Assembly: GCA_963665235.2 (NCBI GenBank)
Contig: CAXXLX010000001.1
Coordinates: 2,656,001 to 2,720,000 of the forward strand
Reading direction: 5' to 3'
Origin: Candidatus Poribacteria bacterium
Lineage (GTDB): Bacteria > Poribacteria > WGA-4E > WGA-3G
DNA length: 64,000 nt
In this document: piece by piece, positions 11,299 through 60,935 of the stretch
Numbering within the stretch: the first letter of the stretch is position 1
Layout: every line of letters begins with the position of its first letter
Notes under the pieces: generated by a model
Told to the model about the DNA's origin: nothing
Databases searched by the model: none
Seen by the model: only the letters and a program-made list of their open reading frames with translations
Made by a program: the position numbers and the translations under genes

Positions 11299-12366
11299 CT
11301 ACTCACTGACAGGTTGCTTCAACGTTCCCCACGTTACTTTTTTTTTGCCTACGGGTGAGACCCATAGCAAATCATCGTCTATCCAATCTAATAGATTAGT
11401 CGTGCCTAAATGGTCTGTTAGCGGCGTAATCTTCTCTGTCCGAATACGATACTTATAGATTTTGGCAGGTGGAAACACAAAACCGCGCCATAGCGGTTTG
11501 TTCAAGGGAATGTCGACCTGAGCACCGAAAACGATGGATTTACCATCATCCATCCAGTCCATACCGGCTCCTCTCCAGTCCTCCGGTATTTGGAGTTCTC
11601 TGATGTTCTCACCGTTCAAATCACATATCATATACCGAAACGCCCTAAAAAAAGGAAAGTTCCCTTCATTCGGTATTAGCACGCGTTTATACTCTTCTTC
11701 TTGAAACAGTATCTGTTTACCGTCGGGGGACCAGCGCGGTCTCAATCTATGAATCGCGAATTCTTCTTGAATGGGTGCGGGAAGAAGGGGGCGCGGGTTC
11801 CGACCATCTGAACGCATAATCCAGATTGTGCTATTTTTGCTGAATCCTCTCGGTTTTGCGAATACAATATGCTTACCATCTGGCGACCAATTGCATTGGA
11901 TACCCCATTCATCCGATATTTTTCTCATCTTTCCTGTTTTTATATTTAACACGTAGATGCCGACTTCTAACGCGTCGTTTATCAGCATGCTCCTTTTAAA
12001 GACGATATATTTGCCATCCGGTGAAAATGAACCCCCATTGATAGAACCCATTTCATCGTCCTCTATTGGGAGCTGTCGAACGTTCGTGCCATCCGCATTC
12101 ATTAGAAATAGGCCAGCGACTCCCTGCTTGATGCGTCCCTTAAACAGTATCTGTTTACCGTCGGGGGACCAATAAAGGGGGAATGGTCTCGACACTTCGT
12201 TTTCTAAGATAAGTGTCTGGTTGCTGCCATCATCGTCCATAACGTAGATACCATAAACACCAACACCATCGCGTTGTGAGCCAAAAACGATTTTGGCATC
12301 TGCTACTGTTGATAGAAGCAGCAGTCCTATCAGACAAAGCAAACCGACAACTTTTCGTCCAAGCAT
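11299..12366 (-). CDS. Secreted TolB-like (PD40) beta-propeller protein with conserved C-terminal tail
   Basis: Signal peptide, multiple WSPDGK repeats, tail VSPVGKKKVTWGTLK. Confidence 0.85.
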   Translation of the reverse strand: MLGRKVVGLLCLIGLLLLSTVADAKIVFGSQRDGVGVYGIYVMDDDGSNQTLILENEVSRPFPLYWSPDGKQILFKGRIKQGVAGLFLMNADGTNVRQLPIEDDEMGSINGGSFSPDGKYIVFKRSMLINDALEVGIYVLNIKTGKMRKISDEWGIQCNWSPDGKHIVFAKPRGFSKNSTIWIMRSDGRNPRPLLPAPIQEEFAIHRLRPRWSPDGKQILFQEEEYKRVLIPNEGNFPFFRAFRYMICDLNGENIRELQIPEDWRGAGMDWMDDGKSIVFGAQVDIPLNKPLWRGFVFPPAKIYKYRIRTEKITPLTDHLGTTNLLDWIDDDLLWVSPVGKKKVTWGTLKQPVSE

Positions 12367-12422
12367 AGCGAACCTCCTTGAAAAAAATGGCAGGGGAACG
12401 TGTTCCCCGCCGTTACAACAGA

Positions 12423-13292
12423 TTACGGTTTTGGATTGTCTTCATCAGTAAACGTAATAATAAAAGGAACCGAATCCACGTGCCTGTCGTCCTGCCCCGT
12501 TTCGAGGTGGATGTGAGCATTCAAATAATACTCGTCATCCGGGCCGATCGGTCCTCCGACGAAATAATCTGTCATGGAATTGGAGTAGGCATAATAGGTC
12601 GAATCGTATTTCGGATCGCCAGTCCGAATTGTTTTGGAGGGGCCATTACTTATTCGTTTCCACCCAGTGGGTTTGGCCTGTTTGCCGTTTCCATCGTATT
12701 CCGTATGTCGGAACCAGGATTCGCATTGAATGCCTGTATTGGTTGGGTTACTTGCATGGACATACCCATCCATGATGATATTCGTGCCATCAAAGTAATG
12801 GCCTGTGAGTGCTACATAGCCGTAGACACCGGGATGTAGTATTATCCCGTTATTTCCGGTTACAGCGCTGGTAGATATAGGTTTATAGACCGTAAAATTG
12901 TAGGTTTCACTGTCTGCATGTAAAATAACCCGCCCTAGCGGGAAAGCGACTGCTTTTATCTTATACTTTTTGCCTTTTAGGTTGCCGGGTAAATTGGAAA
13001 AACTGAAATAATCTTCGGTTTTGGTACCATCCCCCTCACTTCTACCTTCAAGAACATTGTCAACATACCAGAGGATAAAAGCATATGGTTTATCTGTTCT
13101 GATATAGAAAGTGAAGTACGGATCGCCGTAATCGTATTCTGTGGTTGTTCCGTTGTAAGACCGCAGTTCTTCAATTTCGATCGGTTCCCCGATGGGACCC
13201 AATGCCCCGATGGCATCATTGATACCGACAAAACCTATTAGTAGGAATGCAGCGAATACTACTGCGATTGTAAAGGTCTTATATTTCAACAT
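12423..13292 (-). CDS. Secreted hypothetical beta-rich protein
   Basis: AAGGAG RBS before ATG at 13292; signal peptide MLKYKTFTIAVVFAAFLLIGFVG. Confidence 0.75.
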   Translation of the reverse strand: MLKYKTFTIAVVFAAFLLIGFVGINDAIGALGPIGEPIEIEELRSYNGTTTEYDYGDPYFTFYIRTDKPYAFILWYVDNVLEGRSEGDGTKTEDYFSFSNLPGNLKGKKYKIKAVAFPLGRVILHADSETYNFTVYKPISTSAVTGNNGIILHPGVYGYVALTGHYFDGTNIIMDGYVHASNPTNTGIQCESWFRHTEYDGNGKQAKPTGWKRISNGPSKTIRTGDPKYDSTYYAYSNSMTDYFVGGPIGPDDEYYLNAHIHLETGQDDRHVDSVPFIITFTDEDNPKP

Positions 13293-13463
13293 TTTGCGCT
13301 CCTTTATATTTATCAAATTTTTTCTATTTGCCGTTTGTAACAAGTGAACTATTGTTAATCGGGAGCACCATAGGTTGGAGCACCCTGGCTACCAAATCAA
13401 TATGCTCTAAATAAACGTTGAGGAGAGATTCATCTTGAAAGTATTGTTTTGGTGGTTATTGGT

Positions 13464-13491
13464 ATTATACCTTTTTTGACTTTTTTGTCAA
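13464..13491 (-). promoter_or_regulatory. sigma70-type promoter
   Basis: TTGACA-16 nt-TATAAT on the minus strand, upstream of the 13292 gene. Confidence 0.6.
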
Positions 13492-59040: not shown

Positions 59041-59074
59041 CGATAAAAATCTAACCTAATATAGGAGGTTAATC

Positions 59075-59878
59075 ATGAAAATTGCTAATATGTATAACAG
59101 ATTAAGACATCTTGAACGTGTTGCCTTTATCATAATGCTCATCGTTGGGCTTACTTTCAGCGTATATGCTGGAAAAGATGACTGCACAAACCTTGATGGC
59201 GACGGTGCGAAACCTATTAAAGAGGTTAACGAAGAAGCTGTCGGTACCCAAAACGATTATGACGATGTCGTTAAAGAGGATGACCGCAAAGGCGTTATCT
59301 ATCTCGCTGTCATTGGTGGTGATCAGCCGAAACCGAACGGGTGTGGTCTTATTCCGAAAAATCCAGCAAACGAATGGACAGGCTGGGGCGGTCCCCTAAA
59401 CTTTGACAATGCGACTATCGGTGAAGGAGGGGGCAGCCGAAATCATATCGTTATCGGCGGAATCTACTTTGAGCGCGGCATCGGCGCACATTCTGTTGGC
59501 ACTTTGGTTTACGATCTCACCGGCGGCAATTACCTCAAGTTTGAGGCGTACGTCGGCATGTCCGATGAAAAAGACCCGGGCGATTGTGGACACGGCGGAA
59601 GTGGCGACTTCATATTTTCTCTTGATGGAAAAGAGGTTTTCAAATCCGAAACACTTAAAGGGGCCGATGGCGGCAAAAATGTTGAGGCTCTCAAGGTAGA
59701 ATTTGACATTCCCGCAAACGCCAAAGAGCTCACAATCGTTATGGGCAACGGTGGAGACGGAAACGGCTGCGACCACTCCGCAATGGGCGACGCTAAACTC
59801 CTCACCTCACAGGCACTCGCCGTTGAACCGGGCAACAAACTCCCCACAATCTGGGGACACCTGAAGGCACAGTATTAA
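59075..59878 (+). CDS. Secreted NPCBM/NEW2-domain protein with C-terminal tail
   Basis: IGGIYFERGIGAHS, KFEAYVGMSD, DHSAMGDAKL; tail AVEPGNKLPTIWGHLKAQY. Confidence 0.87.
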   Translation: MKIANMYNRLRHLERVAFIIMLIVGLTFSVYAGKDDCTNLDGDGAKPIKEVNEEAVGTQNDYDDVVKEDDRKGVIYLAVIGGDQPKPNGCGLIPKNPANEWTGWGGPLNFDNATIGEGGGSRNHIVIGGIYFERGIGAHSVGTLVYDLTGGNYLKFEAYVGMSDEKDPGDCGHGGSGDFIFSLDGKEVFKSETLKGADGGKNVEALKVEFDIPANAKELTIVMGNGGDGNGCDHSAMGDAKLLTSQALAVEPGNKLPTIWGHLKAQY

Positions 59879-60158
59879 ACACTGAACCCGTAACACCGGA
59901 TAGCGTTCATACCGAGCTGCTATTTAGCAGGGTGAATGCTTCCGCAACTTGAATGGATTACAACTGGGGAGCTGCTAGGACATTAACACATAACCGTGTC
60001 TATAGCACATCCCCATAAAGCATTTCCGGATTACCCCGGAGAAACGTTAGAATATCACCTTGTCGATAGCGTCCTTTCGCATCCTACGGTGAGCTAACTT
60101 AGACGTATTAAACTGCGTTTTTATCAATATCTAAAAAAATAGATGGAGGTTCAAAACA

Positions 60159-60935
60159 TTGAAACTGACTAACCTATTTGCTTTAAGCGTTCTACTTATC
60201 ATTGGACTTACCTTCAGCGTGTATGCTGGCAAAAGCGACTGCACAAACCTTGATGGCGACGGTGCAAAACCTATTACAGAGGTCGCTAGCGAAGATGTCG
60301 GCACCCAAAACGATTATGACGAGGTCGTTGAAGAAGATGACCGGGAGGGTGTTGTCTACCTTGCTGTCGTTGGGGGAAGTCAACCGCAACCGAACGCGTG
60401 TGGTCTTATTCCGAAAAATCCAGAAAACGAATGGACAGGCTGGGGTGGCCCGCTAAACTACGACAACGCTACTATTGGTGAAGGGGCAACTACCCGAAAC
60501 CATATCGTTATCGGCGGAATCTATTTTGAGCGCGGCATCGGCGCACATTCTGTTGGCACTTTTGTTTACGACCTCACCGGGGCAGATTACGTCAAATTTG
60601 AGGCGTACGCCGGCATGTCTGATGAAAAAGACCCGGGCGATTGTGGACACGGGGGCAGCAGCCATTTCGTCTTTTCTATTGATGGAACAGATGTCGTCAC
60701 AACCGAAACGTTGAAAGGCACAGATAGCGGCGAAAATGTTGAGGCTTTCAAGGTCGAATTTGAAATTCCCGCAAACGCCAAAGAGCTCACAATTGTTATG
60801 GGCGACGGTGGCGATGGATTAGGCTGCGACCACTCCGCATTGGGCGATGCCAAACTCATCACCTCCCAAGCAACCGCCGTTGAACCTGCCAACAAACTCC
60901 CCACAATCTGGGGACACCTGAAGGCACAGTACTAA
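60159..60935 (+). CDS. Secreted NPCBM/NEW2-domain protein (tandem paralog) with C-terminal tail
   Basis: Close paralog of 59075; GGAGG RBS, TTG start; tail AVEPANKLPTIWGHLKAQY. Confidence 0.87.
   Translation: MKLTNLFALSVLLIIGLTFSVYAGKSDCTNLDGDGAKPITEVASEDVGTQNDYDEVVEEDDREGVVYLAVVGGSQPQPNACGLIPKNPENEWTGWGGPLNYDNATIGEGATTRNHIVIGGIYFERGIGAHSVGTFVYDLTGADYVKFEAYAGMSDEKDPGDCGHGGSSHFVFSIDGTDVVTTETLKGTDSGENVEAFKVEFEIPANAKELTIVMGDGGDGLGCDHSALGDAKLITSQATAVEPANKLPTIWGHLKAQY

Follow-up and report, generated by a model that had tools for sequence, protein, structure and literature searches.

A portable C-terminal tail on Sec-exported binding proteins of Poribacteria as a possible docking or retention tag of the cell envelope

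Five exported binding proteins encoded in the window, the 64-kb stretch of poribacterial DNA analysed here, end in the same peptide of about 20 residues, which matches no described sorting signal and which we tentatively read as a disordered docking or retention tag for a lineage-specific envelope reader. All five ORFs follow the consensus V-[ED]-P-x-x-K-L-x-T-x-W-[GA]-x-[LI]-K, then 3–5 residues (Table 1). Translation reproduced the positions and C-termini given for these ORFs in a first-pass annotation, and the Pfam matches agree with its folds, i.e. two PD40 propellers, one CBM_4_9 protein and two NPCBM proteins. The second propeller is likely to start at 32211, which gives a signal peptide, rather than at 32307. 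Five tail genes were observed in the 64-kb window against 1.6 expected from 132 per 5.31 Mb (Poisson P of at least five = 0.023), which is unremarkable since tail genes cluster in tandem, such that 59 of 129 in this genome have another tail gene next door.

Table 1. Tail genes and neighbouring genes discussed in the text (positions in the window)
Feature	Position	Strand	Tail coding positions	C-terminal end	Evidence and remarks
PD40 (TolB-like) beta-propeller gene, signal peptide	11299-12366	-	11302-11373 (stop codon 11299-11301)	VSPVGKKKVTWGTLKQPVSE	PD40 2.3e-15; tail HMM 20.1 bits
Exported protein of no known family (family A)	12423-13343	-			no Pfam match; directly upstream of propeller gene 11299-12366
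Second PD40 beta-propeller gene	31183-32307	-	31186-31257	VFPLDKLAIQWGHIKQVD	Pfam PD40; tail HMM 23.9 bits
CBM_4_9 carbohydrate-binding protein, signal peptide	33329-34009	+	33935-34006	PVDAKEKLATQWAHIKTARF	Pfam CBM_4_9
PorU-like C25 cysteine peptidase, 1717 aa	51474-56627	+			Pfam, NCBIfam; PorU model 354 bits against a 420-bit cut-off; Propeptide_C25; C25 aa 687-1030; own T9SS type A/FlgD_ig CTD aa ~1627-1710
NPCBM-domain protein, signal peptide	59075-59878	+	59804-59875	VEP[GA]NKLPTIWGHLKAQY	Pfam NPCBM; tail HMM 27.5 bits
NPCBM-domain paralogue	60159-60935	+	60861-60932	VEP[GA]NKLPTIWGHLKAQY	Pfam NPCBM

Genome- and phylum-wide counts, which the first-pass annotation had proposed to make with an HMM, place the tail far beyond the window. 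In the 5.3-Mb genome the tail HMM finds it at the end of 132 ORFs, which form 26 families unrelated by BLAST and include LamG, PD40, NPCBM, CBM4/9, CBM9, discoidin, YWTD, Kelch, LRR and beta-helix proteins as well as unknowns; PD40/TolB-like propellers account for 26 of these ORFs. HMM matches are C-terminal in 136 cases and internal in 17, and a six-frame scan of the genome places 138 of the 245 occurrences of W[GAS]x[LIVM]K in open frames of at least 60 aa within eight residues of the stop, so that the frequency at C-termini is far above chance. SPase-I-like (Sec-type) signal peptides are predicted for 124 of the 131 tail ORFs with a start codon, compared with 243 of 599 background frames, while only two of the 131 are lipobox-like and one is Tat-like. 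Carriers are small and consist of a single binding domain (median length about 265 aa); the CTD cargo of the same genome is larger, mostly 630–1600 aa. For one representative from each of the 26 clusters, Pfam assigned either a binding or repeat fold or no family at all; none showed a catalytic or enzyme domain. Since all carriers examined are binding modules, the tag probably organises the presentation of lectins and propellers by these sponge symbionts to polysaccharides or to their host.

Across the genome the fuller consensus reads (A/P)-V-[ED]-P-x-x-K-L-[TA]-T-T-W-[GA]-x-[LI]-K, followed by 1–8 residues that are mainly basic or polar. The conserved part ends precisely with the last Lys of the motif, beyond which the residues vary in both length and sequence, and eight propellers carry an extension of 30–45 residues past the motif with charged residues within. 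At the motif-ending position about 129 Lys stand against 2 Arg, and two positions of the tail use Lys almost to the exclusion of Arg; this points to chemistry or a highly specific pocket instead of simple docking. Every tail in this genome continues beyond the Lys. Pfam and NCBIfam models did not match the tail in the five window proteins, nor did Pfam in the 26 cluster representatives. The earlier description of a tail without a TM helix that lies outside the curated signals is therefore borne out, as is its fold-independent, C-terminal occurrence on signal-peptide proteins, and because of these properties the tail behaves like a sorting or docking tag.

That a single peptide ends so many unrelated genes could also be explained by a repeated DNA element at 3' gene ends that supplies the last codons and the stop. 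However, every synonymous codon is in use for the conserved V, P, K, L, T and G residues, the information content after the stop is about zero, and all three stop codons occur. The scrambling of synonymous codons shows that selection acts at the protein level and refutes a DNA repeat as the source of the tail, an explanation that is practically out of the question also because the tail is kept in CBM4_9 orthologues of 59–94% identity. In an alignment of 25 of these (out of at least 120 orthologues) and one paralogue, V208, K213, L214 and W218 are invariant. Structure prediction models the tail as an intrinsically disordered peptide: in the AF2 model of the CBM protein, residues ~30–195 are folded, while the tail (198–226) has a pLDDT of ~40, with a low-confidence helix drawn at residues 210–225. 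In a natural protein carrying both tail and CTD, the tail has a pLDDT below 50 and lies between a WD40 blade and a CTD at pLDDT 85–97. The idea that the tail docks on the CTD, be it within one protein or through tail-only proteins hitch-hiking on CTD cargo, was set aside, since AF2 draws the tail of the tail+CTD protein as an unstructured linker.

The tail is present in all 121 sampled Poribacteria genomes, which span eight families and 20 genera. Among the loci listed by an all-species scan with a degenerate DNA pattern (at least 80), 76 are titled Poribacteria and 79 are C-terminal, and these record titles place the lineage in Poribacteria, many being sponge MAGs. Of the best 150 matches of a worldwide tail search, 143 end within six residues of the C-terminus. 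Phage carriage was rejected: the consensus pattern occurs on no viral contig, and among the 30 viral loci that match a looser pattern only one (L194) is a genuine C-terminal tail. The uncultivated phylum as a whole marks about 2–3% of its genes with this tag, which is covered by no curated model and of which the literature searched yielded no description.

The same genome encodes parts of a T9SS, including an SprA-like protein (142.5 bits against a cut-off of 200) and a PorV/PorQ-family barrel (182.6 bits against 90), together with 63 classical type A CTDs recognised by the TIGR04183/PF18962 models; the GldL and GldM models found no match here, and the named control genomes were silent too. 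The T9SS cargo includes both cohesin and dockerin proteins, with a true Dockerin_1 in one of them (L170). In three of the 63 CTD proteins the tail plus three residues directly precedes the LLQN/VFQN-YPNPF of the CTD, i.e. it sits at the expected PorU cleavage point. Phylum-wide, 49 of 121 genomes contain this junction, with 66 occurrences in all and none of a reversed-pattern control. It is found on several unrelated passengers; the link to T9SS nevertheless rests on few independent events, because only three of 63 CTD proteins show the fusion here and many of the cases elsewhere belong to one orthologous family.

Poribacteria thus append a portable linear peptide behind the final folded domain of small binding modules that are exported by Sec and are not lipoproteins. 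On the reading that we tentatively prefer, this tag would be distinct from the outer-membrane export signal itself and would most likely be read by a conserved, lineage-specific envelope component, by which many different lectin-like and propeller modules would be held together at one site, probably the cell surface. The tag of T9SS cargo lies exactly between passenger and CTD, and PorU-type removal of the CTD would then leave a protein ending like the tail-only proteins; this placement implies that the tag would act no earlier than the final step of T9SS processing. The docking or retention role and the surface site are what we infer from this arrangement, and the Sec signal peptides of the tail-only proteins would fit a periplasmic site just as well.

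The first-pass annotation had proposed a minimal export or anchoring signal, possibly handled by a T9SS-like machine that includes the C25 protein encoded at 51474; in the form considered here, the tail would stand in for the CTD of ~80 residues and take the protein through an SprA-type translocon. SprA-like, PorV/PorQ-family and PorU-like proteins are indeed encoded in the genome, tail and T9SS parts occur together in every sampled genome of the phylum, and the tail core and many CTDs alike end in [LI]-K. Yet the genome has 63 canonical CTDs, and in some proteins tail and complete CTD co-occur in cis, which shows that the tail is not a replacement for the CTD. Furthermore, the tail is disordered, in contrast to the Ig-like fold of the CTD, and lacks a TIGR04183/PF18962 match; nearly all of the all-species loci listed are poribacterial, although T9SS is common in other phyla; and the silence of GldL and GldM adds a weak negative, since the controls were silent as well. 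A minimal export signal is thus quite improbable, and what stands of the proposed link to T9SS is the position of the tail immediately N-terminal of the CTD wherever both are present. A rather better, though still unlikely, candidate is a covalent sorting signal, in which a Lys-specific PorU-like C25 transpeptidase uses the invariant motif-ending Lys as P1, and which compares with transfer by PorU, sortase or butelase. Doubtful to the same degree is the corresponding assignment of the leaving group, either the trailing 1–8 residues or the whole CTD, with transfer to a surface anchor. The end of conservation at the Lys and its near-exclusion of Arg would fit such a cut, as would the motif's location at the site of the required PorU cut in proteins with both tail and CTD. 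Enzymes of clan CD are known for strict specificity at P1 and can use short leaving groups. Consistent with a need for a leaving group, no tail here ends at the Lys, and family f1 (82 genomes, this one included) has only seven matches of K+stop compared with about 230 of K+one residue+stop. Against this, 10 matches in the three deepest-branching genomes end exactly at Lys, and a Lys-terminal protein cannot form the acyl-enzyme. The protein at 51474 had been recognised correctly as PorU-like, given its Peptidase_C25, Propeptide_C25 and FlgD_ig/T9SS type A CTD, and it is a candidate reader of the tail; its nearest solved structures are RgpB (1CVR, 1.7e-25) and PorU (6ZA2, 8.8e-24), and its catalytic H904 and C939 are invariant among 22 aligned sequences. 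It is one of three PorU-like paralogues in the genome (354–393 bits against the cut-off of 420), which are deeply diverged (28–29% identity) but keep the catalytic His and Cys, and all 121 genomes have 2–5 C25 copies, so that phylogenetic profiling of tail against C25, as proposed earlier, offers no contrast. S1 Asp163 of RgpB aligns with a Leu in the window C25, as in PorU, in a loop where the alignment is uncertain; all three paralogues are PorU-like rather than Kgp-like, the S1-loop alignment being too uncertain to assign a specificity to the two larger ones. In a predicted complex of the window C25 (residues 640–1160, 22-row alignment) with a 36-residue tail (23-row), ipSAE reached 0.02/0.01 against a mark of 0.32, a score that favours neither binding nor its absence. 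Synteny was rejected as a link: a LamG tail gene adjoins the C25 paralogue L155 in this genome, but none of 13 L155-class and none of seven L156-class orthologues adjoins a tail gene, two regions among the orthologue loci having one 2.4–3.4 kb from the C25, and the closeness of the window C25 to two tail genes is expected by chance when 132 such genes are dispersed over the genome. In addition, a CTD-bearing C25 should be located beyond the outer membrane, and tail-only proteins have no known way to reach that side. A complete sortase-like pathway, in which an extra PorU-like clan-CD enzyme cuts after the Lys and fixes more than 100 modules per cell covalently to the surface, is slightly less probable again; if true, it would have the shortest known bacterial signal of such a system, usable with or without a T9SS CTD.

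A further option, also unlikely, is that the carriers remain periplasmic, with the tail tethering them to a component of the inner or outer membrane. This could involve beta-strand addition to a TonB/TolA-type domain, for which the T-rich core and alternating hydrophobic residues would be suited, or weak binding to the membrane by an amphipathic helix, as with the C-terminal anchors of PBP5/6, in line with the low-confidence helix predicted by AF2. The tail-only carriers bear ordinary Sec signal peptides, lack any known signal for export across the outer membrane, and include the 26 PD40/TolB-like propellers. By contrast, the same tag occurs inside T9SS cargo that leaves the periplasm, most carriers have lectin or CBM folds that usually act extracellularly, and amphipathic membrane anchors are usually far less strictly conserved in sequence. 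As improbable as the minimal export signal is a host-directed motif, with the tag on secreted, eukaryote-like binding proteins being read by the sponge host or its matrix instead of the bacterium. Many carriers are eukaryote-like (LamG, LDL-receptor class B, Kelch, LRR, discoidin) and many of the listed records are sponge MAGs, but the tag occurs in all eight sampled families of the phylum and its placement before the CTD is left unexplained; moreover, we know of no eukaryotic C-terminal motif that matches it.

The tag resembles several known systems without coinciding with any of them. Like the T9SS type A CTD (TIGR04183/PF18962; FlgD_ig-like), it is C-terminal, fold-independent and lacks a TM helix, on Sec-exported carriers, and as in T9SS with its PorU/PorV attachment complex, PorU-, PorV- and SprA-like genes are present and some tails abut a CTD. 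It differs in being ~20 disordered residues long instead of a folded Ig-like domain of ~80 (70–100), in having no TIGR04183/PF18962 match in the tail region of the five window proteins and 26 representatives, and in occurring in cis with a complete CTD. With LPXTG/sortase, PEP-CTERM/exosortase and GlyGly-CTERM/rhombosortase it shares a short C-terminal motif on many unrelated exported proteins encoded by dispersed genes, as well as the basic residues that follow the motif in tripartite signals; unlike in these, no hydrophobic helix follows, only 1–8 residues, and no NCBIfam signal model matches the tail. Sortase and exosortase models (PF04203, PF09721) found no match in the genome, which is 92.6% complete, while they matched the named control genomes, a negative that favours the covalent C25 reading. 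Short, disordered, conserved C-terminal peptides also dock unrelated cargo to a single receptor in encapsulins and microcompartments. The tail is likewise short, disordered, conserved and C-terminal and would dock in a similar way, but those systems are cytoplasmic, whereas the tail proteins have signal peptides and number more than 100 per genome. A C-terminal element that docks many different proteins to a scaffold is likewise a feature of dockerin-cohesin systems, yet dockerins are folded Ca-binding domains of ~60–70 residues and the tail is a linear peptide of 20; none of the 26 cluster representatives matched Dockerin_1 (PF00404). C-terminal sorting signals have repeatedly led to new envelope machinery, including sortases, exosortases, rhombosortase and T9SS. 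The exact placement of the tag before T9SS CTDs offers a concrete experimental entry point, and if the tag acts as an anchor, a portable peptide of 20 residues could serve surface display.

The gene neighbourhood did not lead to a reader, since its sole notable family is tied only to PD40 propellers, and none of the non-tail families accompanies tail genes in general in this genome. Other families enriched near tail genes are small. The exported family A protein encoded upstream of the first propeller has 14 copies in the genome, 10 of them with a tail gene at most two genes away (p=1.4e-8), and as every copy adjoins a PD40 propeller gene, family A is a partner of this propeller subfamily and not of the tail in general.

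Translation of the window returned all five of the ORFs singled out by the first-pass annotation, with the C-terminal ends described there, and these are exactly the five tails that the window holds. Neither Pfam nor NCBIfam models matched the tails of the window proteins, even with NCBIfam hits taken down to E values of up to 1, and no published description of the tail was found in the curated libraries or the literature searched. The remaining window genes are housekeeping genes (BamA, Skp, LpxD, Suf, riboflavin synthesis, aconitase), along with one TonB-dependent receptor. 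In a six-frame scan of the whole genome (5.31 Mb, four contigs), W[GAS]x[LIVM]K occurred 245 times in open frames of at least 60 aa, of which 138 lay no more than eight residues from the stop. The C-terminal position of the tail was borne out by an HMM of its 19-residue core, which gave 136 C-terminal against 17 internal matches across the genome, 132 of the C-terminal ones scoring at least 11 bits. Among 126 copies the core reads V (114), P (86) or A (28), K (115), L (90), T (81), T (71), W, G (92) or A (31), L (82) or I (35), and K, the W and the final K being preset by the search pattern. After this lysine the same copies continue for one to eight residues, with a mode of three and no case of zero, in which R, A, Q and K are abundant; when the last position was left free in a genome search, only two genuine tails had arginine in its place.

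Coordinates of the features discussed (C1 and C2, contigs of the genome containing the window, G000; L-numbers, loci)
Feature	Position	Strand	Assignment
Tail protein	window 11299-12366	-	PD40 (Pfam)
Tail protein	window 31183-32307	-	PD40 (Pfam)
Tail protein	window 33329-34009	+	CBM_4_9 (Pfam)
Tail protein	window 59075-59878	+	NPCBM (Pfam)
Tail protein	window 60159-60935	+	NPCBM (Pfam)
PorU-like C25	window 51474-56627	+	Propeptide_C25, Peptidase_C25, FlgD_ig/T9SS type A CTD (Pfam, NCBIfam)
PorU-like C25 paralogue, L155	C1:378631-385101		
PorU-like C25 paralogue, L156	C1:444835-451179		
Family A member	window 12423-13343	-	no Pfam match
T9SS-CTD cargo, L173	G000:C1:491736-494609		two cohesin stretches
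Ig-repeat CTD cargo, L170	G000:C2:75688-79902		Dockerin_1 just N-terminal of CTD
PorV-like gene	G000:C1:2640903-2642117		
Flanks of PorV-like gene	L031:1033-1407 and 3227-3683		HKLEVYAT/TNWKF-type repeat units

Phylum-wide, profile matches to the tail were obtained in all 121 sampled Poribacteria genomes, spanning eight families and 20 genera, with 41 to 366 first-look candidates per genome. An all-species search with a degenerate DNA pattern, run on one genome per species, yielded at least 80 loci; among the 80 listed, 76 have Poribacteria in the title and 79 place the motif 0-10 codons ahead of a stop. The Synechococcus and Clostridia loci are chance matches with no further tails, while a MAG titled 'uncultured bacterium' contains 108, and a 1.9-Mb MAG titled Pseudomonadota (G121, the source of locus L042) shows six matches to the tail, spread over four contigs and falling in ORFs 342-396 aa long; these could represent mis-binned poribacterial contigs or horizontal transfer. 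The names of the orthologue sources are likewise Candidatus Poribacteria. Out of 1.84 billion cluster representatives, 492 match the tail at E ≤0.001, and the C-terminus is at most six residues from the motif end in 143 of the best 150 of these. The tail is real, phylum-wide and selected at the protein level, and in general terms the lineage-specific sorting tag proposed by the first-pass annotation stands. That it is an artefact supplied by a repeated DNA element can practically be dismissed, because all synonymous codons are used at every conserved residue of the genome's tails, the information content 3' of the stop is about zero and all three stop codons are represented.

Among the 131 tail ORFs that include a start codon, 124 begin with a hydrophobic, positively charged stretch, in line with co-occurrence with signal peptides; the heuristic is crude, and 243 of 599 random frames comparable in length also pass it. 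By inspection, the N-termini are ordinary SPase-I signal peptides, two of the 131 being lipobox-like and one Tat-like. Without signal peptide and tail, the proteins fall into 26 clusters (single-linkage BLAST), and Pfam was run on one representative of each, i.e. on 26 of 131 proteins. The representatives identify a Laminin_G_3 cluster of 48 tail proteins, a PD40 cluster of 26, LRR + LTD giants (four) and an NPCBM cluster (three), further clusters comprising CBM_4_9, CBM9_1, F5/8 type C, LDL-receptor class B, Kelch and beta-helix proteins; about a dozen of the 26 match no Pfam family, and none of the representatives contains a catalytic domain by Pfam. Most carriers are 200-370 aa long. Their genes are dispersed, often in tandem, such that 59 of 129 adjoin another tail gene.

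The sole strongly enriched neighbour without a tail is 'family A', an exported family of ~265-320 aa, for which a tail gene is found no more than two genes away from 10 of the 14 genomic copies (p=1.4e-8). The window member lies immediately 5' of a PD40 propeller gene, forming a two-gene cassette with 13 more copies in the genome, and two pairs among the 14 copies resemble split genes. A PD40 propeller gene adjoins each of the 14; family A is a partner of a PD40 propeller subfamily and not of the tail. On C1 and C2, eight ORFs for PD40 propellers, 382-453 aa long, have the motif in a non-terminal position, followed by a conserved basic/aromatic extension of 30-45 residues (...WGxLK-SLLPAYRxxF...); family A genes adjoin those that were checked.

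The tail amounts to a linear, disordered tag carried by exported binding modules. In an alignment of the window CBM4_9 protein with 25 of its 120 listed orthologues (59-94% identity) and one paralogue, V208, K213, L214 and W218 are invariant. AlphaFold2, using this alignment, modelled the CBM domain with a pLDDT of 80-92 and residues 198-226 with a pLDDT of ~40, indicating that the domain does not include the tail as one of its strands; a structural strand, named by the first-pass annotation among the findings that would refute its idea, is thus at odds with the predicted fold.

Several T9SS or T9SS-like parts are encoded in the genome. The type A CTD model gave 63 matches, and the three PorU-like C25 genes (1731, 2156 and 2114 codons between stops) share 28-29% mutual identity and each carry their own CTD. 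Their catalytic residues, His904 and Cys939, are invariant in 22 aligned sequences that include all three paralogues, and the window member scored 354 bits on the NCBIfam PorU model, below the cut-off of 420. A SprA-like protein of 2152 residues scored 142.5 bits where the cut-off is 200, a barrel of the PorV/PorQ family exceeded its cut-off of 90 with 182.6 bits, and a single secretin is present. The GldL and GldM models had no match in the genome, a weak negative as named control genomes were equally silent. No sortase or exosortase domain was found in the genome. The CTD cargo sampled (8 of 64 candidates found by pattern) includes WD40 propellers, Ig-repeat proteins with dockerin, a cohesin protein, a subtilase and an M6-like peptidase; the Ig-repeat family has 16 members, of which L170 was scanned. 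The cohesin and dockerin cargo hints at a cellulosome-like assembly displayed via T9SS.

Tail and CTD meet in three of the 63 CTD proteins, all WD40/PD40 propellers, where the motif plus exactly three residues leads directly into the CTD (...VEPKGKQLVTLGQIKRAQ-LLQNFPNPF in two proteins, ...GKHFTTWGKLKTTD-VFQNYPNPS in one). As a DNA pattern, WGx[LI]K followed by a short gap and N[YF]PNP occurred 66 times in 49 of the 121 genomes, against none for the reversed control; the pattern admits at most three trailing residues, so that longer spacers escape it, and many of the 66 belong to one orthologous family. In twelve fetched junctions the motif is complete (V-[ED]-P-x-G-K...W-G-x-[IL]-K), and it follows several passengers that are unrelated to one another. 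In an AlphaFold2 model of a junction C-terminus, the tail is predicted as a linker (pLDDT <50) that joins a WD40 blade to a confidently modelled CTD. PorU-type cleavage is expected at the CTD boundary, as established for P. gingivalis. The tail lies at this expected cut site, so that removal of the CTD by a PorU-type enzyme would expose an end closely resembling those of tail-only proteins.

We tentatively favour a role of the tail in docking or retention, exerted at the last step of T9SS or after it. The first-pass annotation instead proposed that the tail is a minimal T9SS signal on which the C25 at 51474 acts; beyond the positional link to the CTD this is not supported: tail and full CTD coexist in the same proteins, so the tail does not replace the CTD, and the sole immediate C25-tail adjacency of this genome is not kept in 20 regions of other genomes. 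A minimal export signal is improbable. Lys-directed transpeptidation by C25 at the tail would fit the abrupt end of conservation at an almost invariant lysine with variable residues beyond, and the lack of tails ending at the lysine itself in this genome; in f1, its family of 82 genomes, K+TAA gave seven matches (reversed control four) versus about 230 for K plus one residue plus TAA. However, ten tails end exactly at the lysine in the three deepest-branching genomes (families f7 and f8), the position of S1 Asp163 is Leu in the window C25, as in PorU (RgpB alignment), and for all three paralogues the nearest match is PorU or RgpB and not Kgp, so we regard this reaction as rather unlikely. Phylogenetic profiling against C25 did not discriminate, because C25, like the tail, is present in 121 of 121 genomes, in two to five copies (three in most of f1, two elsewhere in the order). 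That the tail is a periplasmic tether is unlikely, and that it is a host-directed motif improbable as well.

The flanks of the PorV-like gene translate to repeat units, which indicates tandem-repeat DNA and possibly a MITE-like element. Trailing-peptide length differs by lineage, the 19 genomes of family f3 having neither K+0 nor K+1 tails with a TAA stop. In viral contigs the consensus pattern had no match, and a looser pattern returned one genuine C-terminal tail among 30 loci: L194, a 20.6-kb contig classed as viral, carries the gene for a protein, 362 aa or longer, that ends in ...KLATTWGHLKSGK.
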